A DNA stretch of 64,000 nt from Tubulanus polymorphus (lineage: Eukaryota > Animalia > Nemertea): the NCBI RefSeq assembly GCF_964204645.1, contig NC_134026.1, positions 21,548,150 through 21,612,149 of the forward strand, in the 5' to 3' direction. The notes under the pieces were generated by a model, which saw only the letters and a program-made list of their open reading frames with translations, had not been told where the DNA came from and made no database searches. The position numbers were made by a program, and so were the translations under genes. This document shows, in pieces, positions 6,901-30,100 of the stretch (within the stretch, counting starts at the first letter, position 1; every line of letters starts with the position of its first letter).

Positions 6901-7449
6901 TCCCCTCGCAAAAATATTCGAACCTGATGGTGGGTTTACTGCATAGACTCTAAAACAAGTCCATGGTTCGTGAAAGATCAAATAAAAGCTATAGAGATCA
7001 AAGTAGACCCGACAGAAATTAACCCATATACCACAAGAGGAATTGAATATGTTCATTATACCAAAGGTTAATTCACTATCAATTGTAAAATGTACATAAT
7101 AATGTACTTATTATTAGCAACCCTGAAAACCTGAGTTTTCAAGGGTTTAAGTCGGGATTCGAACCCCCCGGGTTCTAAACGTTAACGTCGCTGCTAGGAG
7201 ACTGGTCGCCTGTCACGTGCTGCTGTCAAAATAAAGACCCGACAACCAGTCAATGTCATTGCTTAACATTTCGGGTTCGATTCCGAACATTTTTGGAACC
7301 AAATTCAGATTGCAGACCTTTGATAATTGTATAACAAGCCTCCTATCCCATATATAAAAATATGACAAACATGAAAAAAGCAAATTTGAAAATATAGACT
7401 ACAACTTACGTCTTAGCGGAAGGATATGTAAAACATGAAGCGCAGCGAG

Positions 7450-7545
7450 CTACTTTCAGTACGAGAGCGGCCATCTTGCTTGACTGACGACGCTTATCCT
7501 TGAAAAAATCCCTGCGAAATCGTCCTTTGATTCATACCATCCGCT
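7450..7545 (+). promoter_or_regulatory. Core promoter/5'UTR of 14-3-3 gene 1 with YY1-like GGCCATCTT
   Basis: CTACTTTCA...GCGGCCATCTTG...AAAAAATC...AAATCGTC...ACCATCCGC-ATG is conserved with 15063-15161 upstream of gene 2. Confidence 0.6.
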
Positions 7546-10500
7546 ATGGAGAGCGAAGGCAGAGCAGATTACGTTTATGTTGCTAGATTAGCCGAACAGG
7601 CTGAGCGATATGATGGTGAGCTGCCCTGGAAATCGACAATTTGTTTACCTTCATTCACACTTGTATTGACGAAGTATTTATTTGACAGGCCTACACACAT
7701 TTCAATTCATTGACATTGCAAAAGAAGCCTACCTGTCCCTTTTATACGAACTTATCAGAGGCGGGTCTCATTGATTACCTTTTAACAACAATAGAACACA
7801 ACTATTACTTGTGTACTATCGATAATTTGACAGACTGAGACGGCAGTGTCACTGTCACTAACTGTCAATCTCCCGAGGGCGCGTGGTCTGCTGCACCCCG
7901 GTCTTAGGAAAAATACGTTCTCTCTGATAAAAGGATATATATATTTGGGAGCAACTGCAGTTAAGGTGTCCCTTATCTACCTAACCTAGTCAAATAGCAC
8001 TATTCTCTAATAACACAGCCATTGAATTGGATGGTGCCTACTAATTACCTAAACTTAAGTTAGACCGCAAAGCCTAGTTTAGCAATATCAATTCCGGATA
8101 AATGACGAGAGAAATCCCACCATGATTCAGTCTGAGATTAAATATGGGAAGTGGATATTTTGCCAATGCAGCATTATTTTAGTAAACGCTAGTTTGCCAA
8201 TGGCTATATATATATTAAGATATAGTAATAAAATATGATAATAGAATCATTATATTGGGTTTAGGATTAGGGTTTCGATAGGGTTAAGGTCTAGAGGGTC
8301 CAGAGGGTTAGGGTAAGGGTGAGGTTTAGGGTCTGTTTTTTACCCCTAGGGATAGGGTTAGGGTAAGGTGAGGCTTTATGTAGTGAAAACTTACGGATGG
8401 GTTTGAATGAGCTCGGTGGTCTAGTGGAAAGACGTTGGGCTAGCAATCTGCTGGTCCGGGTTCGAATCCCGTTCTATGCTGCTATTTTCACTAACTCTGT
8501 TCTCTACACTTTCCTTGAATTTTCTAAGTCGCGCACGTCGGTGCGCATGCGTAGCGTCAATTAGCCAATCAGAACGCGCCATTGGCAAAATAGCGTTGAC
8601 AGGAATAATGCCGCATTGGCAAAATATCACCTGCCATAGAAATACTTGAATAGAAGAGAATTTATTAAGAGCAATGTTTGGGCTAAACAGCCATCATCTG
8701 TTGTACTGATCGTACGTTGAGTACGTCTGATGATGGCTAATAGTGTTTAGCTGAAACGTTGCTCTTGATAATTTCTCCTCTGTTCTAGTATTTTTAATCT
8801 CGGACTGATCATTGTGGGATTTGTCTGGTCATCCATCATACACGGATAGTGTGTACCCTCTCGACAAATTCGGATAAAGCCTTTTTGGTGGCTTCAAATG
8901 CACAAGCCTTGTTTAATGTTTGTGGATTTCGCTATTGTGGACGACGGTAGAATGTATTCTAAAAATTTTAAGGGAATCTAAAAAAATTTAGGGGGTACTT
9001 GTCCCCCTTGAACTGCCCTTGAATGATGCAGTTACATTGTTCTACTATGGCTCTGAACTAGGTTCTACAGTTTTCGGTTGGTGTTCACTCTGTTGGAGTT
9101 AAGGTACCATAAGTTCATTTCAATGTTTTAATTTTTCAATTGAACCCAAATCAGTGGAACTCAACCGGGTCCTGGATATCAGAATCATGTCCATCCATCG
9201 TGGTAGTGGATACTTTGTTTGTTTGTTTACATATGGGTCACTTGAATTCTCGCAGAAATGGTCGACGCGATGAAAAATGTAGCCAAGCTGAACGTGGAAC
9301 TGTCGGTCGAAGAGCGAAACCTCCTGTCGGTAGCGTACAAGAACGTGATAGGTGCGAGAAGAGCATCGTGGAGAGTTATAAGCAGCCTCGAACAAAAAGA
9401 CGACGGCAAGGGCGCCGAAAAGAAAGAGCGAATTGCAACTTATAAGAGAGTGGTGAGTCTTTAATACGTGAAATGAAATGAGCTGGATATTTTTTCTTCT
9501 TTTGACGAGAATTGTGAGCGAATGTCAGCGTTTGGCAGTCCAGCGGTGATTTAATCTGATGATATCGGTCGTCGTCAGAATATTGTTCCACCTCTTGAAA
9601 AGTTGACTAACCCTCCTGACTAATAATGTTTTGAAGGGATGTTCATTTCTGTAACATCTCCGCACTCCTAATCGGTGTCGGTATTTTTTCGGGTATCCTC
9701 CCTTGTGTGTGTGCGTGTGAATGCTCCTGCCGAGAAAGGACTTTTTACACTAATTGCGTTGGTTTTCGTCTACGTTTTATTTTTTCGAATCGGTTAAAGT
9801 CATGATTCGTATTAATCGTGTGGTTATAATTCGTGGACCGAGTCACGAGGTTCCTGCCTTCACAATACCAGGTAAGACGTCGAAGTTGCTTGGCTTTAAT
9901 TAATTAAACAAGTTTTTAATGAAAATGAGAGAATGTGTTTATACATCATTCGCTTTTTGTTTTGTTTTGTTTGTTTTTCTTTTAACAATAAGAGCACTTA
10001 ACGATAATATCAATACTTGTTAACGGGAATGTTGCTGTGAAGTGGGTAAATTTTCTCGTTGGAAGGACAAATTTTAGACCTTAGCCAAAGCCACATTGCT
10101 GGTAAACTGAAGGCAGGAACGTTGATTCTAATCCTAAGATTCATGTGTAAATGATTCATCTTTTTCAGTTCAGTGCCTGTGACTTTGGCAAAGGTTCATG
10201 CCCGTGTGCGACGAATGGGCTAGGCCTGTTTGTAATATTTAAAAAAAGATATCGAAAAATTTACTCGTTGAAGTGTGTATCTTTGAATATTTTTCATCAT
10301 CATTTCAGATCGAGCAAGAACTGTTGGTAAAATGTAAGGAAGTCATATCGTTGATAGATACGTGCACACGAGATCCGTCGAACGCTGAATCTGAAGTATT
10401 CTATAATAAAATGTAAGCAGTTTATCTTGAAAATTGTATCGACGGCGTGGAACACCTCTTTTTAAACTCATCCAAACCAAAAAAATGCTGTTTGCCTGGT

Positions 10501-12516
10501 CGTCATCGTCAAAAGTCATTGCATTACTCGAGTAGCTTGCATGACTCAATTTCTTCGAAGTGTTAGTCATTTGGATATTCGTCAAGAAAATGATAGTCCC
10601 AACTAAGGCAACTTGAGCTAGATTGATAGGGGGTCGTCCATTTATTACGTACTCATCGTAGGGGTGGAGGGGGTCTTACTAAATTGCATGCATGTGTACG
10701 GAAGCGATGAAGGGCCTCGAGTTGTCGCGTTCCAACTCGACAAGTTGTCATATTTATGTCGACATATCGCGTCAAGTCGACATCATATCGTGACGTTTTG
10801 ACGATATATTTCGTTTTCACTGCCATTTTCCTCGCGACAAGACTTGAAACTCAGTCGTCATTTCACTGGCATCCTCATCTTACATTTAGACATGTCTTCA
10901 AATGACGGCTTGTCCCGTGAAAAATGGGCGAATTTGTCGTGAAAACGTCACAATATGTCGACATAAGTATGGCGACTTGTCGAGTTGGAATGCGACAACT
11001 CGAGGGGCTTTATCGCTTCCGTACATGTGCCTACAGGGGGGAGGGGGGCTAATTCTGATGCGTTTGGTATGCACAATTAACAAATCGTGAGCATGCCCTG
11101 TATACGTCGTTCAATGTCTACTACCCCTATTGTACACCGTGGGCTCATCCTTGTTCAAGAACTCGCGACTTTTTAGTACAAACGTAATGAAAGTAGGCCT
11201 AGGTCTAATCAATAAAAACAATAGTCTTTCCTTGAGTCTTCCCTTTTGTGTTAGACACTTTGGGGAGAGGGGTAACTTTGAAGGTCAGTATGTACGCAAA
11301 GGGGAGGGGGTAAATGATTTGCGTACAAGGGGGGAGGGGGTCTGATTTTACCGAAAATAATGCGTACGTAATAAATGGACGACCTCTAGTGAAAATATTA
11401 ATGAATGATTATTTTTAACAAGCCTTTACTATAGAACTTGAATGTTCGTTTAGATTTGGTTGCTGTGTCATTTTCCAGTATTAAAAAAAAAACGTCATAG
11501 GGTTCATTGATTTATTATGTATGCATTACGGGGAGGAGTGAGTGGAATTGCGTACTGTAATGCTTCATTTTGAAAAATTCAGATTTTATGCGTACGTAAT
11601 AAATGAATGATCCCATACATAATTCATGTTTTCATCCTTCTACTGCTCATTGTAACGATATTCCTTATTATGCAGGAAAGGTGATTACTATCGTTATATG
11701 GCGGAATTCACAACCGGAGAAGAACGAAAAGAGGCAATTCAAGAGAGTTCCGATGCATATAAAGCGGCGAAGGCTATTGCCGACAAACATCTGAAAGCTA
11801 CGAATCCGATTTGTCTTGGCCTGGCGCTGAATTTCTCTGTGTTTTACTACGAAATTCTCAACTCGAACGAAAGCGCGTGTCAATTGGCAAAGGATGCATT
11901 TGAAAAGGCAGTCGCTGAGTTGGATTCGTTGCCCGAAGATAGCTATAAAGATTCGACCTTAATCATGCAGTTGCTGCGAGATAACCTGACCCTATGGACC
12001 AGCACAGGTGAGTTATGTTCATAGTTGTTAAAGTGGAACCTCGTGGAAGGACCAATTGGGGGCATCTAGTTTTAGGTAAAATCTTGATCAAACATGTTTT
12101 ATGTAAACCATAAGTGATCAGCATTGGGTCAAAATCCAGATTTCATTGATCAGTGTGTTCTTCTCGTGGAATCTAATCTTATTTCAACGAAAATGGTTAA
12201 TAGTTAATTCTCAAATTTGTTGTACATCTGTGATGGAATTCCACACTGCTGCGCTTGTTGGTTCAGTTGCTATTTAGTGGTTTCATCTCAATTGGTGAAC
12301 TCATAGTCTTAAAAATCAGCTATATTTTACATCAAATTTTGATCATTATAGATAAGAGGGTTGTCATTTAATTTATCTTAATTTTGAAAATACATAACTG
12401 GTGTTTCAAAAAATGTAAGTCGTAGATGTTTTTAAATTCCTAACGGGAGATTCATTAAATTTTCAGAAGCTGAAAACCAGTCTGCAGATGATGATGTTGA
12501 TCAGGACGAAGCCTGA
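7546..12516 (+). CDS. YWHAE: 14-3-3 epsilon-like protein, gene 1 (5 exons, divergent paralog)
   Basis: Exons 7546-7615 ([23 protein letters not shown]), 9256-9452 ([22 protein letters not shown]), 10309-10412, 11676-12007 (KGDYYRY...[19 protein letters not shown]), 12467-12516 (acidic tail, TGA). Phases consistent; AATAAA at 13276. Confidence 0.93.
8151..8631. mobile_element. Non-autonomous TIR element with degenerate TTAGGG-like tract and tRNA-like A/B boxes
   Basis: TIRs GATATTTTGCCAATGCAGCATTATT / AATAATGCCGCATTGGCAAAATATC. GGGTTAGGGTAAGG repeats ~8257-8372. TGGTCTAGTGG (~8417) and GGTTCGAATCCC (~8459). Confidence 0.6.
8644..8865. repeat. Inverted pair of a dispersed repeat with hammerhead-like core (Penelope-like)
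   Basis: 8644-8697 is the reverse complement of ~8729-8790. The inverted arm resumes at ~8102-8145, beyond the 8151-8631 insertion. Another copy lies on - at ~59250-59385. Core CTGATGA-T-GGCTAA...TTAGCT-GAAACG at 8727-8758. Confidence 0.5.
9850..10196 (+). promoter_or_regulatory. Conserved intronic RNA-pairing module A/B/C with cryptic splice sites, 14-3-3 gene 1 intron 2
   Basis: A 9850-9876 (GTTCCTGCCTTCACAATACCAG|GTAAG), B 10077-10120, C 10178-10196 after TTTTTCAG. A:B gives 13+6 bp; B:C gives 17/19 bp. Homologous to 16954-17385. Confidence 0.75.
10629..11386. mobile_element. MITE flanked by TA, with nested palindromic element (~10689-11029)
   Basis: TIRs GGGGGTCGTCCATTTATTACGTAC / GTACGTAATAAATGGACGACCTC. 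Internal long inverted repeat CGGAAGCGAT...CTCGACAAGT...GTCGACATAT mirrored at ~10940-11027. Related short copies at ~11498-11614, ~22569-22830 and ~25373-25503. Confidence 0.8.
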
Positions 12517-15062
12517 ATGAAATGATGTCGGCATCAGTTCAGAAAATATTTATAATGGGGAGGGTGGTCATCGGATGAGTAGTATAAAGTGTTTCCGAGG
12601 TTGGAGTTTCATGGCCCTATTGAGGGCTTGTAGCAACGTGTTACTTGTCAAAAAAAAAAAGTTTATTTTTGTTTGTCAGTCGTACAGATTGAATGACCCA
12701 GCAATGAATCTGCAGCAACGGCCGATCCCAAATACATTCGATGCTGAAGGTTTAAACAGTCAGTGGTGTCAGCGCTTGGTGGTAGGCCCTGGATATACAT
12801 GTATATCGTTTGATGAAAAAAAAAATAGAAAAACTTCAGCCTTACTTTAAACAACAGTTTTGAATTGTGTGGATATACTGAACCATCGTATATGTATCCA
12901 TAGTGGACCTGGAACGGTTCATGAATATTCTGTAGAATACATTTATAAACTAGTTATATCCATCAAACCTGATCGGAAGAAGTAACATTTAAAATTCCAA
13001 GTTCTACAGATGGCGACAGGCGATAGGAAAAAATGTCTGTTGCCTATTTCTATGTAAGCAGGGTTAGGACACGGAAGTAGAACGCTCTTGCCACTCACTG
13101 AAGTTTTGTACTAAACATTCTATTTTTTTGTAACGCGTCAACTTGATTTATTCAGTATTTATATATTCTTGGATATACATGCCTTAATTATCATACATAA
13201 TAGTAGTACTTGATTTTAATACATGTAGTCTAATTTATTTGCTGTGTGTGAACTATAATTGTGATATTAATCGGAAATAAAAATTTCACTAAAAATTCTC
13301 GTGTTTGTGTTAGCATTGGACTTTCATTTCTATTGTTAAACCTGATTAATGTGGATCGGATCCAATTGACTTCCAGCTCTGGTTCACCTATTCATAAATG
13401 TATGGAGATTAGGGAAATCTAATAGATTTCTCGCATAAACTGGGCTTAATTCTGTTAGTTCCAGATGATCTGCATTAAGCAGGGTGTACTGTGCAAGGGT
13501 TAGCGTACTTGCCTAGAAAATTCAGCGAATCTGAGAAATCTAGAAAAAATTAGGGAAGTTTGACAATTTTCGCAAAAATCTTCGGGAATTTGGGTATGCT
13601 ATGGCCATGTGCTTCTTGATCAATACCAGCTAGTTTGTGAAAAAATTATTAAATTGTAACATTGCATACTCCAATGAATTTCTCCATTCGCCTTCCGATT
13701 CGCTTTGGAATTTTGTGCTACGACATGGATAATACACAAGACTTGAAGTTCGGAAAGTTGCCACCCAGATGTTGCAAATTTCTCATTGCATGATTTTATT
13801 TTGATCGATTTGTTTGTGTTACTCTTGTGGCGCTTGGCTTATGATTGGCCAGTAGCTAAAATTTATGAGTTTCTGTAACCATGAATTCCAATTGTTACCA
13901 ATCGGTATGCGTTTTAAGTAGAAACTAGCCCACAAATTATCGACCAAATCAGAGATAAGATAATTAGAAATAGTGCATTAGTCTTAGACCGATTATTAGA
14001 AGACCTTTTGTTCTTGCAGTGTATACATATTTTAGTAGTGGACGAAATTTAATGATCGTTGTTATTTGTGACGAGAATTCTGGTTCATTTCTTATTTTCT
14101 TTGTGCTTGTTAATGATAAACGGAAGAAACGGTTTATTCGAAATTCTAATCTAGCTTAATAATACTATTACACTTGTTGCCAAATGAATCGATATCTGAG
14201 TCAGCACGGTGAACACGGGTGTGGGTGGTTTCTGGATGCGCGACTTCGAGGTGCGCGCACAGTCATAGACAGTACTGGGCAGTGCTGTGACGTACGACAC
14301 GACGAGCGTCCGCCACGCGCCTGCTGGTCTATTATTGGACCGTGCTGTATATAAATTTCTTAATATCGCGCCCGCACCGGTTTTGACTGGAACTGGTATA
14401 GAATCGAACTTGCTCGATACGCTCGAGCGCTGACCGTTGTTGTCTCTGCAAGTTACTTCGCGTTTCGGTATGTAGCAATGCGGTACTGATTCATTCAACA
14501 CACCGAAACGCGGAAGTGACACTGCCCATTGTAGCCATGGTAACGACGTGCGTCACAACCGCCTCGCGCACTTATTCCCCGCCGTGTACAACCGCGTGAG
14601 GAAAAAGATCGTGGGTGGTCGTGCGCGTAATCTCCATATTGAATAAGCGCCCATCTTTTTGAGTGCAAAATATCCCTCAACAACTGACCCAAAAATCATA
14701 AGATAATTTACGTTCGGAAGACCATTTAAGAAATAATAAGATCGTGTCGCCATTTTAAGGAGAGGAGTGCGATATTTTCTTTGAAATGAAGATTAAGAAA
14801 GACCCGAAAATCTCATTATGTTTATTTACTGATTAAGACTCTGCTTTTATAAATTTTTAGCGAATAAATCTGTCAAAATAGACGTGTTTCTGATTGTTTT
14901 CGTTTGTCTTTGATTTTATTACGATGCGTTGAAAACGCGAATTGTTGCGATCAAACTGGTAGGATTTGCGCAGCGTGCATTGATAATCATTATTCACCTA
15001 GCGTAAAAGTAGGCTAACTCCGCCGCGCGCGCATTGATATAACTAAGCTGTCTCTACGAGTA

Positions 15063-15161
15063 CTACTTTCACTGGCGGGCGCGGCCATCTTGTAAATTTC
15101 ACAGGAGATCATTCCGTCAAAAAATCTGCGTTAAATCGTCGCATATTCACAACCATCCGCC
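15063..15161 (+). promoter_or_regulatory. Core promoter/5'UTR of 14-3-3 gene 2 with YY1-like GGCCATCTT
   Basis: Homologous to 7450-7545; CpG-rich context. Confidence 0.6.
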
Positions 15162-16015
15162 ATGGACACTATAAACAGAGAAGATCATGTGTACACAGCT
15201 AAATTAGCTGAACAAGCCGAACGTTATGACGGTAAGTCCTTTACATTATATCTAGTTTTAGACGATACGTATTTTCCGCTGAGAAATCTTCCTCGGCTTG
15301 ATGATCGACGCCCTGTCTCAATAAATGCACTGGTTTATGGGCTCATTTTTATCGCGGCTTAGCTATAGATAGAAATTTCGTTTCAAATCTTTGATGTTGT
15401 TAGCGTTAGTTTTTTGTCAATCGTAAATAACTAGCAAATCAATCGCGTACGATTTTGATGTATCGTCATTGTATTTGTACGACCTTTTTATTTGCCCTGC
15501 CCCCTTTTTTTATTGCCTGAGAAAAGGGTCCTTATGATTTTGCTTGTCTTGTTGCAAGAGGGCGAGGTGAATGCGAAAATATCATCAATGCATTGACAAT
15601 GAAGTAAACTTGAGCCCCAGCGAGCATTTGTAATTGTTCGTGAAGACCAAATATATTGATATTGATCACATGATAGTGGCCTGAATTTCTGATGAAATGC
15701 TTAATGTACCAGACCGTTCTACTCCTGTCTTATCGAAGTCATTTATATGAAGAATGGTGCATGCATAGGAGGAGGAGGCTATGTCTTGGATGAAACGGAA
15801 ATGCTATTTATCTTACAGAAATGGTGGATGCCATGAAAAAAGTAGCCAATCTAAATGTAGAATTGTCGATAGAAGAACGAAATTTGTTGTCGGTAGCGTA
15901 TAAGAATGTGATAGGAGCTCGAAGATCATCTTGGCGAATAGTTTGCAGCTTAGAATTGAAAGAAGATTCTAAGTCAGCTGAAAAGAGAGCTAAGATCGCA
16001 GAGTACAAGGCAGTG
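15162..16015 (+). CDS. YWHAE: 14-3-3 epsilon gene 2, exons 1-2 (putative constant exons)
   Basis: 15162-15231 ([23 protein letters not shown]|GTAAG) and 15819-16015 (MVDAMKKVA...[10 protein letters not shown]...IAEYKAV|GTGAG), ending in phase 0. Confidence 0.93.
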
Positions 16016-16953
16016 GTGAGTTTGGAATAAATTTTTGATGGGTGTTTTCTTGTGATGTAGAAGTCGAGAATTCGGCGAGATATTTCCACCATTTTTCGGG
16101 GGTTTTCTTGCCTCGTAATTGAGGTCATCAATTAAGTTGGTCAATAGAAGGCTCTGATAGTAGGCGTCAGTGCATTTCATGTCATACGTAATCTGCTGCC
16201 TTTGATCATAATGAATCATGTAGTGGCTGGTTTGTTCAAGATTTAGATGCTGGATGGTATAAACTGAATGTTTTTTATGCAGGACTTCAGCCGTCAAGGT
16301 TCATTTCATATCTTAGAGCATACAATGCGTTAATGAATCCTTAATGATGATGATGCTGCCCTGTTTAGGGCCAATCCTTATATGCATACTGTTAATATTC
16401 CATATTAAACTTTCGACAATGTTCCTTATTTGAATTTTGATTAGTTGCATGTTAGCTTGATAATTAGGTGGAATTGAATGATATTTTTGACGATTTTCCT
16501 TGTCGCCACTGTAATCGATTGACTTCAGTGATTATCAAAGTAGCTTTTTTATTCTACTTTAAGGTATTTCACTATTGGATGTATTAATGTTAGGCATTGT
16601 TATACTTTCCGAAGTAATCTTTGACATGGATCTCGAAGTAATCTATGACTTCCGAGATTGTGATTTGGTATTAGGCTGGGTAACAGTGACACTATCCTAT
16701 TCCTGTTTATCACATATATCTAACCATACAACATTGCAATAGTATGAACCATGATTTCTGTAACATTTCTGCGCTGTCTTTTTCAAACGTGTTAACTGAA
16801 ATACGGGTTGATTGTAATGGAAAGGTTGCTTACTGTCAATTGCGTTCACGTAAGACTAGGATTTCCATATGTATAATATGGCTTGAATTCGAAGGTGAAA
16901 TTATATTTTTTGCGATATGTCGATGGCTTTAATAGTTGAGGAGAAGTAACAGG

Positions 16954-17385
16954 ATTCCTGCCTTCAGACTACCAGGTAAGCTAAAACCTGATTTTGCTTG
17001 GCTATTGTCTTTAACCAATTTCGTATTTTGTATCTAACACCTCGAGAATCTTCTCTTGTATCATCTCATCATCAGTTAAACCGATGGAACCCTCTTTTTG
17101 AAATGATCCATTTATTTGAATAATAACCTTGGCTAATATTGATTAAAATTTGAGCCTGCATGGTGTGCTTTTATCTCGGGAGTACCTCAGTGAGACTACT
17201 CTTAGTAGTCAAAAGTGCTTCTAATGTGCCTTATCCTGGGATACTTAATTATATATAACCTTAGCCAAAGCCATAGCTGAGCTAACCTGAAGGCAGGAAT
17301 ACAGAGTTATGACAAGCGTCGTTATTGTTTGGCAAATTATTTGTCTTTTTCAGTAAAGGGTATCTGTGGCTTTGGCTTAAAGGTT
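16954..17385 (+). promoter_or_regulatory. Conserved intronic RNA-pairing module A/B/C with cryptic splice sites, 14-3-3 gene 2 intron 2
   Basis: A 16954-16980 (ATTCCTGCCTTCAGACTACCAG|GTAAG), B 17257-17300, C 17364-17385 after TTTTTCAG. A:B is a perfect 14 bp; B:C gives 6+14 bp. Confidence 0.75.
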
Positions 17386-17488
17386 TAGATAGATATTTCT
17401 GAATAATGAATGCGTCTGACTGGCCGCCTTAATCACTTAGTGTGACTTCCTTGAAGAATAATCTTCTTTTTTTTTTTTGTTAATTCAG

Positions 17489-18698
17489 GTGGAGAAAGAA
17501 TTGGAAGAGAAGTGTAATGATATCATCAGTGTGATAGATGACCACCTTGAGCCGGCTGCGAATAATGCAGAAGCGAAAGTATTCTACAATAAAATGTAAG
17601 TTTAACAATTTGTGGCGTTGTCACTGACTTCAAGGTTCATATTGATTTGATTGTTTGATAACAGCTAATCTCATTGTGTATTATAGGAAAGGTGACTACT
17701 ATCGTTATTTGGCCGAGTTCCGAAATGGTAATGGCCGCAAGACAGCAGCTGAAAATAGCCTGGAAGCGTACAAAGCGGCGTCAAAAATTGCCGAAAGTGA
17801 TTTACAGCCGACAAATCCGATTCGTCTTGGTCTGGCGCTAAATTTCTCGGTGTTTTATTTCGAAATCCTCAATTCATCCGAACGAGCGTGTCGGTTAGCG
17901 AAGTCTGCATTTGACGAGGCGATCGCCGAACTCGACACATTGAACGAGGATTCCTACAAAGATTCTACCTTAATCATGCAACTACTGAGGGATAATTTAA
18001 CTCTGTGGACAGGTAAGGAAAATTTTTAGCTCACTTCGGACTAGCAGCCCAGTAAGCTATCGCGTTCACTTGTTCTCTTTCTTACATGGAAACTTTGATG
18101 ACGCTTCAATGGATTGTCTTGGAGGATCAGAAGTTTGGTTATTATATATCTGCCCTAGATACTTCTGCCCAAAAACTGGCCTGATTAGGATGAAGAAGAT
18201 CCTAAGCTTAATGGCATGTTAGGACTGGTACCTGTGCATATTATGTAACCTCAATTAATAACTCAATTCTAGCTCACTAGTTTTATGTGTGGTGAGTTGC
18301 AAGCTCATCGAGACACTATTAATTTGGTCACTAGGGTATCAGATTGTCAAGCTTTTCACCAAGTGGTCATCTTGTCCTTGAGTTCAGTTGATCTTAGGAA
18401 TTAACTTCAGCCCGGATCCACCCTTTCAGACGCACCATTGAGTGATGTCTTGATGATCAATGAATGGTGATGTCCAATATCTGGTAATGATAGTTTTTGA
18501 TTGAAAATGTCTGGTGTTTTTTGATTCTGTAAATCCTGACAGATCAAAATTGTGGATGATTTCGGGCTGATCTCCTTTAGTTCTTGCATCATCAATGAGA
18601 ACCTCCCAAGTTCAAGGCTAGGTTATTCTTGAGAGTACTTGTTTTTATTTTCAGATGGACAGGGTCAAGCTGAGGAGGCTGAAGAGGAACGCACTTAA
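17489..18698 (+). CDS. YWHAE: 14-3-3 epsilon 3' cassette a (exons 3a-5a)
   Basis: 17489-17595 (VEKELEEKC...AKVFYNKM), 17687-18012, 18655-18698 ([14 protein letters not shown]). AATAAA at 20787. Confidence 0.92.
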
Positions 18699-21600
18699 AA
18701 ATTGTCGAATCTTTCCGAGTTAATTGAACTGGAAAATGTTATATTTGCTTGGATATATTATAAATAATTATAATTATTGTCATATTTTGTATGATTTCTC
18801 GTCGCGCAAGGAGTTACATCTGTACATTGATGGGGATCATATTTTTACCGGGATGATTGATAGTTTAAATCAGATGATTAGCAGCAGTTCAGTTACTAGT
18901 TGGCAAATCTTATTTTGGCGTCTACGGTGCTAAGTGTAATTGATCAGTTCAAAAGGGGGCGTGGGTTCAGGCTGTATTTTTTCTTCTTCCAAGTTCAGGT
19001 ATCCACAGAAATTGCTTGTTGTATTTCGTAGTCGCATCCTTCTGTTGTGTTTGTGATTCGTATTATAAGAGGTTTTGGTCTAGACGTCATGTTTACTTTT
19101 TGAAAGGCAGCATTTTGGCTCTAACGCAAACAGCAGATGTACCTCCTGTTTACTGTGTTCCTTACAATTCAGTCCCATTCCAAAATAACAACATTCAACT
19201 TGCTGTAGCATCCCCCAAATAGTTAAGGATCTTTCCAAAGTCCATTGTCTGGAGCAATCTGCACTTAATGAAAGTTCTCAAATCTTGAAATACCAAGCTT
19301 TGCTCATCTCAATTAAGTTATTTTTCAATTTGTTTTTTTATGATATGTATAATTCTTGCGGATCTTGGTTTTAAGTTCCCTTTAAACAATTGCATATCAG
19401 TAGAGGTGCACTCGCAATCACAGAACTCGCTTAAAACACATAATTTCCTTAGTGCAGGAAATTCTTAGCACCTTGCAGATTTTTAAGATAAACTGATTTC
19501 TTTTGTCGATGAGGTCATTTCTGGAGATTTTATTTGTTTTCTAAGTTAGATATGAAACCATTTTCAGAGTACGGAAGATTCCTCCTCGCTTGGTGCGGGT
19601 CAATTATGTTAACCGAGTGAAACGTATTCGGTAAAACCTTCTTCAGATTCTCTGATTTAACTACTTGTCTTGGTGATGAATCTGGCACGGCGGAGTCTGC
19701 TATGTGCATGCACTATGTTTCTATCGTTTATTCGTTTGTGTAAGATGATACAAAATTACTTGGATATTCAGTAAGGAGGCTTCTTTCGTGGATAGACATT
19801 AGATAAAGAGAATTGTGATAAGCCACAGTCTAAGATTGCGGAGAATCTTTTGGGTTTACGGGTCTTGGTATACGCGACATGCACCTTGGGATGGTCAATT
19901 ATTTGTACGTTGATTGGTGTCATGTTGGACGGGCACGCTGATGGCCCTAAGTGTCTTGAATCTGGTTTATTATAATACCGCCTGTAACTTCCAAGTACAT
20001 GGTCACAATGAGCTTGAAAAACTGCTGCGGTACTTGGAGGGTATCAATCTGTAGCTTCCCTTGTGACTTAATACCATTGATCATTGTCTGATCTTTGATG
20101 ATCAATTTTTGCGAACGTTAATGGCTTCTCCCAAGACGTCATACAGCAGCACACTTTTCAGAAGGTCGTTGTGTAGACACTTCACAATGCAATGGTAAAT
20201 GTCTTTTACATAAATCCCAGTTGCAGATTGATCTGCATATGATGCACAATGCTTAGAATTTCTTTTTAAGTTAGTCCGATACTAGTCCTTAAATTAAGTT
20301 CTGTGAGGTTGTCGATAAGGGTTCATTTTATCATCGGTCTAATTTTTTACGTGTCATCGTTTTCTGCTCATCTGTTCAATATCTTCTGACAATCACTCAA
20401 TATGTTTCACGAAAGCCTTGTGTAATTAGAGAGGAAAAATGTATACCCAACTGCTCCACTGATAATTGTTTGGATCGATGACAAATAGTAGTTAAGTTTT
20501 CTGTATGTGTTTTCACTTTGAATAGTAATCTAGTTGTCGCATTGTATTTTCATGTACATACAAACATATCTGTGAAGAAGCTATTGATATTCTAATGTCT
20601 CTGATAGGTTACACAGTCGGGTTTAGCGAGCGAAAAAAAATAAATGTCTCCGATATATTTCCCAGTTACTGCGGTCGTTTGTCGAATCGTCGAGTTCACT
20701 GTTCCCTATTATTAGTAGTATGATTTTTGATTATTGCTCTAATCAGTATCTGTCTTTGTGTGCATGTGTGAAGCTTTTGATACAATAATAAAAAGAACAC
20801 AGGTGAAATTAAAAAAAACAAAAAATGGCTTGATGAAGTTATTCAAACACATTTTCGGTCCGTGTCCCTCGTCGTTGTTTAGAGATAGTTTTCGTTCTGA
20901 TTTTCGGGATTGTATCAGCCAGTTGTCAGGTACGTGGAGATAGATGGCTGCTACTTTCGATCTCGACTCGAAAATTAAGGTAAGAATCATTCGTAGTAGA
21001 CGTCATTTGGTAGTTGTGATGTCGGAGTAGTGTAAGGAGCAGTCGCTTGTGTAAGGATGCCTCAAATAATTAAATGCGAGCTTGTCAATTCCGCTCGGAC
21101 TTGTAGTCGCGACCTCAAGGAAATGCTGCGCACGCGATTTTTTTCCCCATCTTCAGACGATTAGTATATTTTGCGCTATGAATTTGTCAAGTTTTACCCT
21201 GAAAAACAAGCAAATAAAGAGTGATGGATTATATTGTCGGCTTATCATGTCTGTAGTGTTGTTTTATGGAGTTGAGGGTTTTTTCATTTTAAGATATTTG
21301 CGGTGTTTCGAATACCGGAGGCGTGTAACTGTCCGGTGTATTTTGTACATTATTATTCTGGATTGAATCCTGGCTTTTTTGTCGAGGTGATTGAAGTTGA
21401 AACCAAAAGAAAAAAATGCTAATATCAGCGTTACTGCTTCTTACACATACGTGCTTTGTGTTCGATAATTGGACATTCTCAAATACACGCGCAGTTCCCC
21501 AAATTACGTCATGAATTCATTCCAAAATAATGATGTACTGAAAAAAAAAAACGTATTGAATTTCAACAATCGCAGAAATGTTTACAGAGATCGATGACTA

Positions 21601-21987
21601 TTTATAGGGATGAAATTATTTTCTATTTCGGCCAGAACTGTTGGATATTTGAGATTGTTTCTGTTTTGTTGTTCTTGTTTGTTTTTTCTCGGCTATTCGG
21701 TCTACCTAATCTATTGCAGTTAGTTATCATTGTTCCATCGGTTTTCTTTTCCAAAAGTATCTGGCTGGTATGTTAATGGAAAATGTTTAATTCCAAAAAA
21801 ATTTGCGTGTCCGTATATGGTTCATTATCTAGGCGCAACTAACAAAATTCTGATCAAATTTCTTCTTAGATTAGTCACTCCCTTGCCAATTGCCGTCTGA
21901 TATTTATGTTGATACATTGAATTGTGCGTAACCCGTATATTGTGTCGTCTTGTGTTTGTAATGTTATGTATTTTTTGTAATTTTCAG

Positions 21988-23013
21988 ATCGAAGGTGAGC
22001 TCGAACAAAGATGTAAAGATATACTGGATCTTCTCGATGATTATTTGATTCCAGCTTCGATAGATCCTGAGGCTAAAGTTTTCTATTTTAAAATGTAATT
22101 ATCATTATGAATTTGAAGATATTCGTATCTGCTGATTATCGATTTTGTTATGGTAATTAATGTCTCGTGTGACTGACAGTTCATTTCATTTTTTCGTTTA
22201 AAAGGAAGGGCGATTACTACAGATATTTAGCAGAAATCGCGGCCAAAGATAAATGCGAGGAAATAGCCAAAGAAAGTAACAATGCTTACGAGAAGGCAAC
22301 CGCGCTTGCCGAAGAACTAGCTTCGACCCACCCCATCCGACTTGGATTGGCATTAAATTATTCTGTCTTCTTCTATGAGATTTTGGCAAAGCCCGAGGAC
22401 GCGTGTAAAATGGCGAAGAAAGCCTTCGACAACGCGATCGCTGAATTAGAGTCTCTCAAGGAGGACAGCTACAAAGATTCCACACTGATCATGCAGTTGC
22501 TGCGAGATAATCTTACTTTATGGACGTCGGATATGGATGGTACGTATCTCTCTCCCAGTATCCGAGTTAGGGACTATACGTTCATTATGTACGCATAAGA
22601 ATTTCGACTTTTTTACCCCCCGCCCCTTGTATGTAGTGAAGAAAAAATGTTATCACAAAGCTAGGAAATACCTGTATTGATATTAGATTGGTAGCATTGT
22701 CTCGTGATTAGTTTTTGGCGTATTGGCTTGAGCCTTTCGTTGAATGGCTGTATATATATATAAATCATTAGTTTGTGTTCTCAGTCCCTCCCATGCACAG
22801 GCTAGTATGCACAAATGAATGGTCCTCTAATATCCAAGTTCTTGGAAGAGTGTGGATTGGAATATTTAGGGATCTGATTGTTGAATAAAATAATCTAATG
22901 AAGTGATTTTCGTCATGAAATGGTTTTCGTCAGATTTGATAATCCGTTCAGTATGTTTTAAAATATTTTCAGGCGATGAAGCGAAAGTTGAAGACGTCGA
23001 TGATGATAACTAA
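21988..23013 (+). CDS. YWHAE: 14-3-3 epsilon 3' cassette b (exons 3b-5b), no exons 1-2 of its own
   Basis: 21988-22094 (IEGELEQRC...AKVFYFKM), 22205-22539, 22973-23013 ([13 protein letters not shown]). Intact frame, phase-0 acceptor TTTTCAG. AATAAA at 23770 and 24263. Confidence 0.9.
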
Positions 23014-25924
23014 AACTAAGTGGTGTCATTCCTTTGACTCATCTAGTAATCCAATGTTTTTCTTGTTACGTTCACCCATTGGCGAGGATACCTACTATTA
23101 ATCCTGTGGATGGGAGAACTCCAAGAGAATTACTGGTTCAGATCTGGATATAAACAGAAAGGACTGATCACCATTTCATCATGTTACTTCGGAATAACTA
23201 TTGAGAAGACTTAACTATTTTGACTGGAATTCACTGTGTCCGCTTGTGATAATTTAACTATTAATTATTGATATCATATATTTTTTTTTGTTTTGACTTA
23301 ATGACGGAGGTAGTCATATAATGCTGATAAAGCAAGCGGGACTTGTGCCACCAAGGAAGATAATGTGGCGATATATTTATTCCCCCCAGAGAGACTTTGA
23401 TTAAAAAAAAAAATAGTGTTTACCTAAGTTAACCAGAGGAAATGGTAGTAATTATTAGAAATTTCATATTGCTTTTTAACTTAAAAATCATTAAAACATC
23501 TTTCACAAAATTAGATCAGTTTGGTTTTGTTTTGAACGTCATCGAGTTTGTAGTTTTAAAAAAGATGAAGTTGTTGTCATGGCATGCAACACTAACTAAG
23601 AGAGACTGATAATGGACTAAATGAAGGAATATTTGGAATCTGTTCACTCGTCGTCTATGCAGATTTATGTTTTAGAAGCGACAATTATATCCATGCGGCT
23701 ATAGTGAACTGGTGCTTTGGTGTCGATTACGGCGGCTAAAATTCAATTGAGTCTCGTACCTAATACGAAAATAAAAAATCATCTAGGCATGAGAGCTGTT
23801 AGTGTTGCCTGTATTCAAACATCTTAGGTTCCACATTAAAAAGCTTTGATGGTTCATAAATAACTATTCAATCAGTTTTCGTTGATTATTCAAGGTGTGC
23901 TGTTGTATTGTTTTATTTAGCGAATCTTAAAAAAAAACTGTATTGTTATGATGATAACTCTCTCAATTCTGATGTTGCTCGTTTTTGCGTTTATCTCTTC
24001 GAATGATGATGATGATTATCAAACCCCCTGTGTTATACTTGTCGCTCTTCGTCGCCAAAGAGAGCTATATTCAACTACTACTTGCGTACTCAGTTGGTTG
24101 AGGTTCAATTCTATCCGGCAAACAATGAATGAAATGAAGCCTTGGTTCGAAAATATGAATGTTCAATTGCAGGGAGTTCATCAGATGAAAAATTCAGATA
24201 TTTTCTGCCATATATTATATGCATATAGCGAACAAATTTTTAAGCATACACGTATTGAGTTGAATAAAATAAATGCAATCTTGGTGTCTTGATCCTTAAA
24301 CTCTTCTGAGTGCAGTGGATGTTGATTTGTTCAGTGTGCGTGTGTGTGTCCTTCCTTTATCCTTGATGACTTGCGCTTCGAAAAGAGAAAGATTTCTCCC
24401 AGTTGCTTGAAAGCTGAATTTAGTAAAGTTATTTCAAAGGAGTATTTGACGGGTTACTTAAGAGCCGATCGTCTTTAAGATTCGGTCTGAAGAACGCTTA
24501 GTCGCAATGCGAGGTGGGCGAGTTGCCTCTCTGACAGTCGTCAAAAATAGAATGTACCATTCTTCGATGATGCTAATGACTGGTCTGCGATCGGTATTAA
24601 TAATCTAGGGCTCATGTCACTGATTCTGCCATCGCCAATGCCACCTAACAGACAATGGGGTCAGTTCTTTCGTGACCTGAGTAAGGCCTAAATTCAATTT
24701 TCAAGGAACTGGTGCCTGTATAGATTATGGCTATTTCGTAATGTTTTTTAAGTGCAAGCAAAATGATAAGGGGAAGGTATGGTAGATCCATTAAATAGCT
24801 GATAGGAATAACTACTTTGTATCTGGCCTAGCAATTTCAATTATACCACTTCATGGGATAATGTCATTAAGAATTTTGAGTTTTTGAATAAAATTTGACA
24901 TTACAACGGAGGAAATCATCCTATCGAATTTTGTTTTCATGCATGTTTGATGAGCAAATTTCGTGCTGTGTTCGGCTTGCGGTGAATGCATCCTGTGCGC
25001 GAGGAATTTCGCCAGACCAGCTCGGACTATGATTTTTAAACTACAATCGGATCGTCCGTCCCATTCTAAGAGAAGCTCATGTTGATATGTTATTTCTCTA
25101 CGAGGGCTCATTTCTATTTCATCATAAATAATTATGTGCTTACACAATTATCCCCTTGATGCCACTGTCATACTTCTGCGTTCATATCTACCTGGTCCAG
25201 TAGTACGTCTTCAGGTGTGTGCATATCCTTTGTTGTGTTGGATGCCGGTAGTTATAAATTGCGATGTATGGGATCCTCTCCGTGCAGGTATTCACACTAA
25301 AAGAGTGGCTGAGCTGTTTTCACAGTTCGAATTCAGCGGTATCTGCTGGGCATCGAATGACAATTTCTGGCTTGGGGTCATTCATTTATTTCGCATTGGG
25401 GGAGGGGTCAATGTATATGAAAAAATGGCCGATTTTGTGTACAGAGGGGGAGGGGGTTGAAAAATTTGAATTTTATGCGTACGTAATAAATGAAAAATCC
25501 CCTTGTCAGGGAAATGAATATTTAAGTTCCCAGGATTAATATACATGTAACTGAATATCAAATTTTTCCTGGGACAAAAGGAAATATTTGGAACTCACAT
25601 TTTTTCCGAAGTGTCCTCAAAGGACGAATAGTCCTTGAATTCATTCATTCTCAACAAGCCCTGAATGCTGTTGAGATATACTTATTCCTATGAAATTCTT
25701 GTACGTAAATAACAATTGAGAAGTAACTACTGTCGACTGCCTTACAATTGAATCAGGAAATTTTACAAACACTCAATTTATACCCTATTCCCATACTTAA
25801 TTCAGTAGGTAATTAATTGGGGAAAATCTCAGAGTCATAAGTATGTCAAATCTTGATAGTAAGTTGTTTATAAATGATGAAAGAAAACATTCTTAACAGG
25901 GCGGTATTCCATCTATATTTTTAG

Positions 25925-27132
25925 ATAGAGAAAGAATTGGAAGATATTTGTAATGATATACTGCTAGTTCTGGATGAACATCTAATCAAGAATGCAGAAT
26001 TTGACGAAGCCAAGGTGTTCTACCATAAAATGTAAGTAAAAATGAAAATAATGTATCTGATTCCATAATGCCAGAGACCCTTGTGGCTCTGATCCTTCAT
26101 TCATCTTGTTCCATATGCCCTTTGAAGTGACAGTCCTCGAAGTTTTCGTAAATGTTCTCCCTCCAAGTAAGAATTTGAACAGCAGGCCATTTTGAGAGTT
26201 CCCGTGGTCGAATTTTACAACTCGTCACACTCTGGAACTAGCCCCGGAACAGTCAACCACCCTTCATTTTTATCCGCTATTCCCAGCTGCTACCAAGTAA
26301 AAGCTTAGTCGTGAATTTATTAATGCTTTTAGTTTCTGATTTTCCGATAGTGGTGGATAACCAGGAGTTGACTGCATATTGTGCTAAATGACTGTGAATA
26401 ACTCAACTGATGTAGAATATGATTTTCAGGAAGGGGGATTATCATCGTTATTTGGCCGAGTTCGCCATTGCACCCGGAAGAAAAGCGGCGGCTGACAAGA
26501 GTTTAGAATCTTACACGAAAGCTCAGGAGATCGCAGGTAGTCTGCCGACCACTCATCCAATTCGTTTAGGGCTAGCTCTGAACTTCTCGGTGTTCTACTA
26601 CGAAATTCTGAGTTCGCCGGAGAAAGCATGCGGTCTCGCGAAGAAAGCGTTCGATGACGCGATCGCCGAACTGGACACGTTGAGCGAGGAAAGCTACAAG
26701 GATTCGACGCTGATCATGCAGCTCTTAAGAGACAATCTCACACTGTGGACAACTGACATGAATACTGAAGGTTCGTTCAATATCTTTTATTTTAATCATT
26801 ACTTGATTCCTTAAAAACTCATTCTAAACGGAAATTGTTTTTGAAGGTGCTTGAAACGCCTTTAATTTGAGAAAAATGTCGGAAACTCTATTAAAACTAC
26901 AATAACTTTGAGAAATAGGCGATTAGGTACTTACGAAATTGTATATTAGACTAAAAATCAAACCAAAATCAGTACATTTTGAACCAGGATCTTTTTCCTC
27001 AATTTGATTGGCAGTAGCCAAATTAGAAACTAAGTTTGATAATGTCAATTGATAATGCCTTGCAATTTTTCAGAAGGCGACAGTGCCAAGGCTGAAGACG
27101 CCGAAGACCAAGCCCAGCAACCTCAATCATAA
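25925..27132 (+). CDS. YWHAE: 14-3-3 epsilon 3' cassette c (exons 3c-5c), most canonical epsilon sequence, no exons 1-2 of its own
   Basis: 25925-26031 (IEKELEDIC...AKVFYHKM), 26430-26770 ([12 protein letters not shown]...[20 protein letters not shown]...[32 protein letters not shown]), 27074-27132. Long AU-rich 3'UTR, AATAAA at 29982. Confidence 0.92.
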
Positions 27133-30100
27133 ACAACAGCATATCAACTTTAAAGATGAAGTATACATATATCTATCTATTCATGTCATTTCATTTGGTA
27201 GAGACGCCATCAAAGCTGTTTTTCTCTCGGACCAGTAAAACCGCTTTAGTAGGCCACGCGACATCACTCGACAACATCACTCGACAACTACAAATCAACA
27301 ACGAAAGCAGGAACAAAGAGATATTATTCTATATAACTGTGTATATTTGTATTATGCTGAAAGTATGGTATCAGCATTGTATTCGGCGTAGACTCGATAA
27401 TGTATTCACAAATTCGTTGTATAATTTCTGGTGGTGCTGTTGAAAACCACTCGTATGTCTCTCCTATTTAATGTTCTCATCATGGACATCTTAAGCGAAT
27501 TTAAAACATAGGTGACACCCGAGTATCTTTCTGCAGATTTGAACTGCTCCCCTTCAGATATTTACATTTGTTCGTGTAAAATTGTCACGCGCACCTTTTC
27601 GAAGCGGCGATATAATGACTTAAATCGGGATTTCGAGTATGTTGTCAGTTCATTTTCGAAGAGGAATGCTTTGAGGTGAGGTACTGAGGTCTGGCCAATT
27701 AAAAATCGGAAGAGTTGTGGTAAAGTTACCAGTTGAGGGGCCAGGCAGTAGTAGAATGATGCCTTTATTGACGAACGTGAATAAGTGGCGATTTGATTCG
27801 CTTAATCAATAACATAACGCAATGTTGATTTCTGTTGTCGACGGAGTGCGAGAAGGCATATATACTAAAGGGTATCTAGATACAGTAGATATTTTGCGAT
27901 ACGCCAGTCGTGTTTTCTATGTATTTGATGATGTGTCTGTTGTATGCTGTTTTGTCTTTTATATTATACAGTCAAACCCCGATAAAACGTTTTTACCACT
28001 TCGCACGGAATCCCCTGGGGTATATTGTCAGTTCATCATCTCGATGAAGAAAGTAGTAAGTCTTCAGGGTAAAAAAAAAGGGATACGCATTTTATCGGGG
28101 TTTTACCGTGTAGGACAAATTAGAGTGAAACTGTACGAATATGAATATTCAAGTGACCACGTTTTCGCGCCTCGAAAATGCTTAGAATACTATGATACTA
28201 TGCTTTATTTAGTGGACAGATTTTTAAAGTGAGTTTTTAAACAATAAATCAAGACCATCGATGGAATGAAAGTAGCGTAAAAAACCTCAAAATGATGCTT
28301 TATTTATGAGAATTATTTATTTCATTCTAAACTGTAGTATGAGCACGAGTATTCATGCGTTAAGATATATGACCGAAGTACTGTTTCATAGCGTAAAAAG
28401 TATCATGCCAGATTTGATAAGGACGATGCATTTTAAATTAAAAAAAAAACTCAAAAGTGAAATTTTTTCATAGGTACTTGTGATTTTTAAGTTTCGATTG
28501 ACACATTCGAAGATGTTTGGAATCGTGGTAATCGTCGATATAAATTCTCTTTTTGTATAAAATTCTTATCATCCGCGTTCACTTCCGCAAAAGCTGGTCT
28601 TGCAGCCTTCACGAAAACAACCGTTAAAGTACCGTAATTGAATATGGGAAAGCTTGAATATTGTCGTGGAATTTGTGAAACCTGTTAAGTAGCGCAAGTG
28701 TCGATGGAAAAATCTGTAGCATGCCATTTTAATGCTTTTATCCGATATTGAGTTATTATTCTGCTCTCAATTAGATGATATAGACTTCGTAATCACACTA
28801 TTTACTCTTTCTATCACTTATCAATTAATATTATTTACCACTTAACAGGTGGAAGTTTTTTTTTGTAACATTGTAGTATCATTCCTTTTATTCGATAAAT
28901 GTACTGTATTAATTATTATATAATAATGACTGGCCATTTATATATAAAACGATTATATTATGATCGATTGGTTCGTTCCCCATCGCTGTTTGTTTCGAAT
29001 GTTTTCACACTGTTGAATGATTGAAACGGTATATGAACTGCATGTTAGAACATTTCGAACGAAGGGTCAGTCAGTGGTTGGCCGCCGAAAGAATGGAAGA
29101 TTTAGTGCCCGGTCCGTCTTTGGTTGTCGGGCGATTGGTTTTTTGATTGTATTTCGGAATGAGTTTCTAGCGAGTTTTATAGACGCCCGAACGTAGGTAC
29201 GAATAAACGCTTTGTCGATGTTGCTATAGCTGTAATGATAATTACGTGCGCGGCATGTATTCTGTAGTTGATCTATCGATCATCCCGTTTTATCAAGGAT
29301 GGCAAAATATTTTCATTCGCGAAGCTGAATCATGGAAGAAATACTAGAAATGCCAATTTGCAAGTTTCTCTCCTCGAATAGTCGATATGTAAGTGGTAGA
29401 ATTGAAGTTATGTAGTATTGATGTTGTAATCGAGTGGTCCTTGTTTGCTACGTTAGTAGAATTGTGTCTGGTGTTTGATCATCTCTTTTAACTCGGCATT
29501 ATTATAATTATTTCAATTCAGGCTGCGAATGTTTCGATGTTCAAATACGACGTGGCTTAAATTTTGACATTCGATACTTTTAGATATAAACACGCGCTAC
29601 GTATACTACAACATTTATATTGGATGCACTTTTGTGTATTGTGGTTGATCTTAAAAAAAAAAAAAACTAAAATTAATTTAGAAAAACACAATCCGAAAAA
29701 AAAGTTTCTCTTTACTTCGTAGCTTGCTACGTATACTGTGTTGAATTAGATGTTGTATGATGTCTGTCTTCTCTAACAATATAGTGTCTTAAAATAATAT
29801 TGACGTATGCTGCATACTAAGAACATGGCAGAATTTTTATATGCCGACGTCCCAAATAAATAATAGCAGATTATGTTATTAGGTATAAAATGCATAGTAT
29901 GCCTTTAGTGTTGCGATATTACAATATGATTATTATAATAATGTGCATGTTTGTAATTTAACCCGATGTAAATTCTCAACGAATAAAACAGATGATGGGG
30001 AATATTCTGAAATTTGTTCTTTGAGTAATTCATTTTTCACAGAGGATGCTTTCTTGCCTTTCAAGATTCTATACTGCCTGAACAAGGGAGCAATAAACAA

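Follow-up and report, generated by a model that had tools for sequence, protein, structure and literature searches.

Predicted intronic RNA helices and the choice of 3' cassettes at the 14-3-3 epsilon locus of the nemertean Tubulanus polymorphus

Results

Two interleaved genes and four 3' cassettes

We examined a stretch of 64,000 nucleotides from the nemertean Tubulanus polymorphus (GCF_964204645.1, NC_134026.1, positions 21,548,150 to 21,612,149, forward strand; hereafter the window, numbered from its first letter), which holds the 14-3-3 epsilon locus of this animal. The locus consists of two tandem genes, A and B, both on the + strand, with four three-exon 3' cassettes. Exons 1-2 of gene A (7547-9452) are followed by a single cassette (exons 3-5) from 10309, and exons 1-2 of gene B (15163-16015) by cassettes a (17489), b (21988) and c (25925). 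A first-pass annotation had proposed that a docking-selector code in intron 2 of gene B chooses among these three cassettes. We find that it points to real, conserved elements but to the wrong pairings, and that RNA pairing is probably involved in the choice, through other helices than those it claimed. It had been drawn up without the paralogous gene A and its copies of the same intron elements, the splint and the long duplex between 16750 and 21570 described below, or the RefSeq joining of gene A to cassette c.

The three gene B cassettes are real. Exon joints came from RNA contig sets of three runs (X2, X4 and X6; two samples from two studies), which we took as RNA from their GT..AG joints; runs X3 and X5 had no GT..AG joints among those listed. 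Contigs of this kind lose rare variants and cannot reveal lariats. The exons are as follows.

7547-7615 and 9256-9452, + strand: gene A exons 1 and 2; GT..AG joint of 7614 to 9255 in runs X2 and X4; tblastn with P0127, 98.5-100%
10309-10412, 11676-12007 and 12467 on (feature 10309-13290), + strand: cassette A, from RNA-contig joints; AATAAA at 13276
15163-15231 and 15819-16015, + strand: gene B exons 1 and 2; joint of 15230 to 15818; P0013 and P0122
17489-17595, 17687-18012 and 18655 on, + strand: cassette a; 3' end at about 20.7-20.8 kb; joints in runs X2, X4 and X6; P0122
21988-22094, 22205-22539 and 22973 to about 24910, + strand: cassette b, from RNA-contig joints and P0013; AATAAA at 24887
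25925-26031, 26430-26770 and 27074 on (feature 25925-27135), + strand: cassette c, from RNA-contig joints and RefSeq XP_074643840.1

Joints of gene B exon 2 to exon 3a and to exon 3b were present in contigs of runs X2, X4 and X6, while among the joints listed for runs X2 and X4 we found gene A exon 2 to exon 3A and the internal joints of cassette c. In RefSeq, P0013 is gene B with cassette b (exon 4b matches this T. polymorphus protein at 100%), P0122 is gene B with cassette a, and P0127 (XP_074643840.1) is gene A exons 1-2 joined to cassette c, spanning 16.5 kb and skipping all of gene B. Thus, the exon 2 to 3a and 2 to 3b joints, with these three models, describe tandemly duplicated, mutually exclusive cassettes spliced to common exons; moreover, given the RefSeq A-to-c joint, gene B with cassettes a and b lies inside a gene A intron, and the two genes therefore interleave.

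No joint of gene B exon 2 to exon 3c was listed for 15900-26050, where exon 3c itself had no coverage. The cassette c contig of run X4 starts exactly 4 letters before exon 3c, which is the length of the suffix common to the exon-2 ends of A and B, whereas the cassette a and b contigs of runs X4 and X6 start instead with 30 letters of gene B exon 2; the start of the c contig is an indirect hint that cassette c is fed by both genes. A protein search for isoforms joining gene B to c or gene A to its own cassette, or for orthologous isoform sets, showed none among the best 120 listed of about 8000 scored, a weak negative given this cut in the candidates. In run X2 a single contig crosses the whole gap of 13350-15170 between the gene A poly(A) site and gene B exon 1, which is compatible with read-through; run X4 had no coverage there. 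Run X2 also carried a minor alternative donor in intron 4a (18483-18654) spliced to exon 5a.

Four-fold degenerate sites were identical at 10 of 18 positions between exons 2 of A and B and at 16 of 31 between exons 4 of A and a, compared to only 3/26 to 10/31 for all remaining cassette pairs. Because identity is highest for these two comparisons, gene A is likely to be a later duplicate of the 5' half of gene B plus its first cassette. In two bivalve models (P0002 and P0004; Pinctada and Mercenaria), two 14-3-3 units are fused, the second seemingly starting at the exon-2 position, which suggests that molluscs too have tandem 14-3-3 epsilon cassettes. Small inverted repeats resembling miniature inverted-repeat transposable elements lie at 8147-8635, 10627-11035, 11330-11620 and 25372-25503, the last between motif c (see below) and exon 3c, and are high-copy in the sequencing runs; farther downstream, 60286-63226 is duplicated in tandem (period about 1.43-1.5 kb, identity 74-95%).

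A predicted splint in the intron before each proximal cassette

The first-pass annotation took TGCCTTCAGACTACC at 16959-16973 as a docking site abutting a nested donor within intron 2 of gene B. The segment is present as claimed, and so is the donor (GT at 16976), which is conserved in gene A; of 1156 non-coding GT sites scored with a crude matrix built from 13 local donors, it falls within the top 0.1%. The partners of this segment differ from those proposed, and the elements concerned have counterparts in both genes.

9850-9877, + strand: gene A element 'a', 5' arm of helix P1, ending at the nested donor CAG/GTAAG (GT at 9872); from alignment, pairing and site score
10077-10120, + strand: gene A splint; its 5' half is the 5' arm of helix P2 (-24.9 kcal) and its 3' half the 3' arm of P1 (-37.3 kcal)
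10160-10196, + strand: gene A nested acceptor (AG ending at 10168 or 10173), motif GTGCCTG (10173-10179) and 3' arm of P2
16954-16981, + strand: gene B element 'a', which holds 16959-16973 and is the 5' arm of P1, with the nested donor (GT at 16976)
17257-17300, + strand: gene B splint; 17257-17276 pairs with 17364-17385 (P2), and 17287-17300 with 16954-16967 (P1) or with the nested acceptor
17340-17385, + strand: nested acceptor a (AG ending at 17353, second AG at 17358), GTATCTG at 17360-17366 and 3' arm of P2

The best partner of the proposed dock is 17287-17300, with which it forms a perfect 14-bp helix (P1, -26.6 kcal); the gene A counterpart (-37.3 kcal) reaches the CAG of the donor. A second helix (P2, -30.1 kcal, compared to -24.9 kcal in gene A) joins the segment immediately 5' of this partner, 17257-17276, to 17364-17385, just beyond the nested acceptor. 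In both genes, no other pairing of the segments concerned scores better than P1 and P2. Since their arms adjoin, a single uninterrupted segment of 44 nt can pair with each flank of the nested intron, and we predict that it acts as a pseudoknotted splint, kept in A and B. Across intron 2, the two genes are identical at 131 of 155 positions within the conserved blocks that hold P1 and P2, which were picked after alignment, compared to 278 of 588 elsewhere in the aligned intron and to 10 of 18 at four-fold degenerate sites.

When element 'a' was left out of local folds, the 3' half of the splint covered the nested acceptor in both genes; P1 is therefore predicted to unmask that acceptor. The splint of gene A (10070-10125) also pairs with gene B positions 16950-16975 and 17355-17392 at -34.5 and -34.2 kcal, which is stronger than the pairing of gene B's own splint. 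An Rfam search of 7000-30000 gave 7 matches at E<=5, none above its gathering score and none on these elements; one was a tRNA-like fragment near its gathering score. Metagenome loci matching the splint pattern were rejected as chance, as all 3 of 3 were GC-rich and had no 14-3-3 match.

The GTATCTG motif and its local hairpins

According to the first-pass annotation, a GTATCTG element behind a cryptic acceptor lies upstream of every exon 3 and serves as selector for the dock. The motif does occur at 17360, 21757 and 25339, identical before a, b and c although synonymous sites are saturated, but gene B has 7 sense-strand copies rather than 3. Of the remaining four, those at 20746 and 24819 precede the AATAAA of a and b by 41 and 68 nt, and those at 22125 and 26053 follow the exon-3 donors of b and c at 31 and 22 nt; they may be a protein-binding motif. 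There are two further copies elsewhere on the + strand. Seven copies compare to 0.8-1.3 expected (rank 2-4 of 6898 7-mers), which is not significant after Bonferroni correction. The claim of a cryptic acceptor holds for cassette a (top 0.9% of 850 AGs), but the acceptors of b (top 12-13%, its third AG 53%) and c (top 25-34%) are ordinary; the nested acceptor of gene A falls in the top 4%.

If the code operated as first written, 16959-16973 would dock on each GTATCTG in turn, invading the local hairpin through a GGTA toehold. Two observations fit this scheme: all three upstream copies pair with the dock better than the four other copies do (-5.6 to -7.5 kcal), with the duplex for c equalled by only 9 of 1000 shuffles, and the motif is invariant despite the saturation noted above. 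However, the dock is taken up by the helix with 17287-17300, the TCTG or CTG of the motif is paired in local hairpins, and P1 and P2 occupy both partners. The duplexes for a, b and c (-13.0, -10.5 and -15.7 kcal) rank only 9, 33 and 2 among 281 local minima, those for a and b are equalled by 122 and 70 of 1000 shuffles, and once local opening costs are counted all three become unfavorable (+5.2, +2.2 and +1.5 kcal). The weakest of them is that for b, the cassette with clear RNA support. Finally, the register of dock and motif is not kept in paralogous gene A, where the motif reads GTGCCTG, while a register with the donor core CAG/GTA is kept in both genes, with both motif variants pairing over 6 bp (-5.3 to -8.2 kcal). 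We regard a code of this form as very unlikely; the donor-core register is, at 6 bp, suggestive only.

Around the motif of A, a, b and c, folding predicts a hairpin. The motif stands at the edge of the 3' arm that faces the loop, and the 5' arm is about 80-140 nt further upstream. For b and c, the hairpins are:

21617-21785, + strand: hairpin b; 5' arm 21617-21645, loop with 21732-21744, GTATCTG 21757-21763, 3' arm 21760-21785
25232-25364, + strand: hairpin c; 5' arm 25232-25251, GTATCTG 25339-25345, 3' arm 25343-25364

The fractions of background reaching these hairpins were 0.007, 0.0003, 0.015 and 0.012 for A, a, b and c, compared to 0.24-0.61 for the four other GTATCTG copies. Over six window settings the fractions ranged over 0.004-0.009 (A), 0.001-0.004 (a), 0.014-0.126 (b) and 0.004-0.038 (c); Fisher p values were 0.001-0.023 for b and c combined and 0.08-0.75 for the other copies, and the mirror control was null. 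A four-way alignment revealed no homology of modules b and c. The motif is likely to be a sequence-specific contact at the hairpin edge (a protein site or the 6-bp CAG/GTA pairing) rather than a selector.

Predicted long helices converge upstream of cassette b

We searched intron 2 of gene B for helices against the 12 kb downstream, and ran a duplex scan with strict penalties. The elements that emerged are:

9644-9664, + strand: gene A copy of block 1, from the A/B intron alignment; pairs with selector b at only -17.5 kcal
16750-16774, + strand: block 1 in gene B intron 2, the proposed docking site; pairs with 21570-21597 (-31 kcal) and with 17288-17312 (about -20 kcal)
17078-17090, + strand: gene B-specific 13-nt segment, perfectly complementary to 21732-21744 (helix X2)
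21570-21597, + strand: proposed selector for cassette b, partner of block 1

Two perfect helices headed the list by length, and both precede cassette b: 17078-17090 with 21732-21744 (13 bp) and 16762-16773 with 21571-21582 (12 bp, tied in length with a weaker AU-rich helix). The downstream partner of the 13-bp helix X2 lies within the loop of hairpin b, and this helix keeps -15.1 kcal after opening costs. The 12-bp core is part of a duplex of about 23 bp between block 1 and selector b. This duplex reaches -31.2 kcal, compared to -20.2 kcal for the next best in 22 kb, and nets -17.4 kcal after opening costs; it is second among all helices of gene B intron 2, exceeds 6 of 6 null chunks, and was reached by 0 of 60 local shuffles. 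The gene A copy of block 1 pairs with selector b at -17.5 kcal, compared to -32.6 kcal for that of gene B, which fits cassette b being used by gene B only. The common intron holds a candidate dock, kept in A and B, with a strong long-range partner. There is not one selector per alternative on this dock: the pairing of block 1 at b is strong and that at a moderate, and c offers it no partner. The partner before cassette a (17288-17312) overlaps the splint, so its pairing with block 1 would compete with P1.

Other long-range candidates were set aside. Gene B 16815-16839 with the exon-1 donor (-24 kcal) lay in a region at null (22/50 shuffles); block 1 with the exon-2 acceptors was marginal at 10-11 bp; 16352-16365 with 25895-25908 was reached by 3/50 shuffles, and a run X2 allele at 25900 breaks one of its pairs; gene A intron 2 with 15757 (0/50 shuffles) consisted of low-complexity purine/pyrimidine runs; element 'a' with loop c (-21 kcal, 2.4% of background) netted only -0.3 kcal; and a segment upstream of c with 14294-14321 was reached by 1/100 shuffles locally and 4/40 overall. 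Separately, 24994-25023 is antisense to a stretch of exon 4 that codes for 15 residues, pairing with a at -32.8 and A at -28.1 kcal and with b and c at only -14 and -17 kcal. This segment could silence proximal cassettes in read-through transcripts, although at 3/60 shuffles it is marginal.

Might the long-range helices be chance or relics of duplication, with poly(A) site strength and protein factors setting the choice and GTATCTG serving as a protein motif? The copies near exon-3 donors and AATAAA signals fit such an account, as do the shuffles that give long-range helices of similar score. However, it leaves unexplained why both arms of P1 and of P2 are conserved between A and B, and why the two top helices meet in the 200 nt upstream of exon 3b. 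We consider it the least probable of the explanations weighed here.

Nested splice sites and the search for intermediates

The first-pass annotation predicted that pairing would lead to a first splice from the nested donor, leaving intermediate junctions. Among the 8 joints found in 15900-26050 (runs X2, X4 and X6), none left from 16975, none entered a nested acceptor, and none joined exon 2 to 16976. The same contig data did retain a minor joint of depth 12.6, but contigs lose rare variants, so that the absence of nested joints is weak evidence. Contigs of run X2 were unbroken over 15989-17517 and 20730-22016. The only two intronic contigs among 9 records of run X4 (16764-16966 and 21617-21839, depth about 3) fall on or beside the partner regions, which is a weak hint.

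These data bear on a structure-guided, two-step intrasplicing, which retains the first-pass mechanism with different helices. The nested donor would be spliced first, the splint guiding it to nested acceptor a or A, or helix X2 and weaker contacts leading it into the loop of either hairpin b or hairpin c; the proximal cassettes would thereby be removed, and exon 2 would then join the remaining exon 3. In A as in B, the splint could pair across the junction that such a splice would create, as an internal guide would, and it covers the acceptor in local folds unless P1 forms; the donor and acceptors a and A stand in the top 0.1%, 0.9% and 4%; and the run X4 contigs are the weak hint just described. 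Against this stand the lack of any of the 8 joints at the nested sites, the unbroken contigs of run X2, and nested acceptors b and c that score as background. We think that such splicing is unlikely, though more probable than the other rivals of the looping model discussed below. In group I introns, a guide sequence holds the exons end to end. In its fullest form, for which our confidence is similarly low, the splint would hold the two flanks of the nested intron in the same way, guiding from within the removal of a spliceosomal intron that lies inside another, gene-specific helices would carry the donor to distal acceptors marked by hairpins, and a hidden first splice would commit the transcript, giving an RNA address code by which two genes share four tails.

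The nested donor might alternatively be a ratchet point for recursive splicing, or a U1-binding pseudo-site as in mod(mdg4), with P1 controlling access to it and the A-to-c junction arising by recursive or trans-splicing, aided by pairing of the gene A splint with gene B elements. The core CAG/GTAAG is present in both genes, and resembles the recursive splice site consensus (Y)nNCAG/GTAAGT (PMC5126111, in its accessible part). YAG/GTRAG occurs 4 times in 22.5 kb, twice at genuine exon-4 donors and twice at the nested sites, and the cross-pairing of the gene A splint (-34.5 and -34.2 kcal) beats that of gene B's own. Nonetheless, both sites are weak as acceptors for this organism (top 24% and 33%), no exon 2 to 16976 joint was among those listed, cross-pairing is expected from paralogy alone, and the run X2 contig over 13350-15170 makes cis read-through possible. 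Thus, we judge this role for the donor quite unlikely.

Discussion

A proposed model of cassette choice by looping

The account that we favor, though we give it only about an even chance of being right, is that intronic helices steer 3' cassette choice by looping, the nested donor and acceptors being mostly held in structure and not spliced. In each gene, the splint would form a pseudoknot within the intron that precedes the proximal cassette, pairing through P1 with the 5' flank of the donor and through P2 with the 3' flank of the acceptor. P1 and P2 would compact the intron, and P1 would unmask the nested acceptor, such that the proximal exon 3 is favored. In gene B transcripts that extend past the poly(A) site of cassette a, block 1 would pair with 21570-21597 and 17078-17090 with the loop of hairpin b, and these two long helices would loop out cassette a and bring exon 2 to exon 3b. 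Cassette c is probably taken as the last free acceptor; we found no strong helix leading to it.

Several observations weigh against this model. All of the helices are predictions from one genome, and the variants in the runs, which all lie outside the conserved elements, are uninformative at a density of about 0.3%. A/B covariation is thin for both parts of the splint (in P1, 12 pairs are identical, 1 is compensatory and 2 terminal ones are broken; in P2, 14 are identical, 2 one-sided, 2 broken and 1 gapped), and a splint that holds a near-perfect donor beside a good acceptor exceeds what looping requires. The hairpin windows were chosen after the folds were seen, the four hairpins reach folding z-scores of only -0.7 to -1.4 when their whole windows are taken, and a covariance model built from A and a did not find hairpins b and c. 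With the search widened to all 14 kb upstream, 1 of 30 shuffles matched the score of block 1 with selector b. The other partner of block 1, 17288-17312 (-20.6 kcal), in addition to overlapping the splint, is not kept in gene A (-9.4 kcal), so that competition for one dock remains a prediction. Lastly, no helix from gene A intron 2 to cassette c rose above null (15/60 shuffles).

Relationship to known systems

The comparisons that follow hold for the accessible portions of the papers cited. In the Drosophila genes PGRP-LC, CG42235 and Pip, competing RNA pairing acts in 3' variable regions (PMC6191721). As in those genes, the T. polymorphus locus has tandem multi-exon 3' cassettes with their own poly(A) sites, long-range intronic duplexes that would approximate a distal cassette, and a donor near the dock whose access would be affected by structure. 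It differs in lacking a dock for which each cassette is preceded by a good selector, in its predicted two-helix proximal pseudoknot bridging an intronic donor and acceptor, and in having a fixed-motif local hairpin per cassette and two interleaved genes.

Docking site/selector systems are described for Dscam1, 14-3-3 zeta, Mhc, srp and MRP (PMC6071210), with which this locus shares alternatives born of duplication and complementary intronic elements. In contrast to the internal single exons of those genes, the alternatives here are terminal three-exon units of 14-3-3 epsilon, and, as gene and exon arrangement both differ, the locus is not homologous to the insect 14-3-3 zeta system. By analogy, it appears to work like pairing control of a 3' variable region, but we do not file it as a docking/selector member because no one dock has a selector before every alternative.

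Nested intrasplicing of 4.1R likewise offers intronic sites usable in a first step and a promoter coupled to a downstream splice choice, but no intermediate was seen here, and the accessible text on 4.1R describes no RNA splint (10.1101/159350, PMC7373989). Paralogous neighbors with cross-pairing intronic elements recall the pairing-directed cis- and trans-splicing of mite sDscam (PMC9258826), and a conserved U1-type site in the last common intron recalls the TSA motif of mod(mdg4) (PMC4387717). In contrast to both, all parts here are collinear on one strand, and trans-splicing is only a candidate. Our literature search returned no paper on this locus, on 14-3-3 in nemerteans or on any splint that spans nested splice sites; supplements and most subscription papers were outside its scope.

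Pairing control of 3' cassette choice, described in Drosophila genes and mite sDscam, may have a compact lophotrochozoan example in T. polymorphus, where the paralog supplies an internal comparison and the predicted helices yield exact mutational predictions. If the nested splice were true, RNA structure would guide a hidden first splice that decides which C-terminal two-thirds of 14-3-3 is made.

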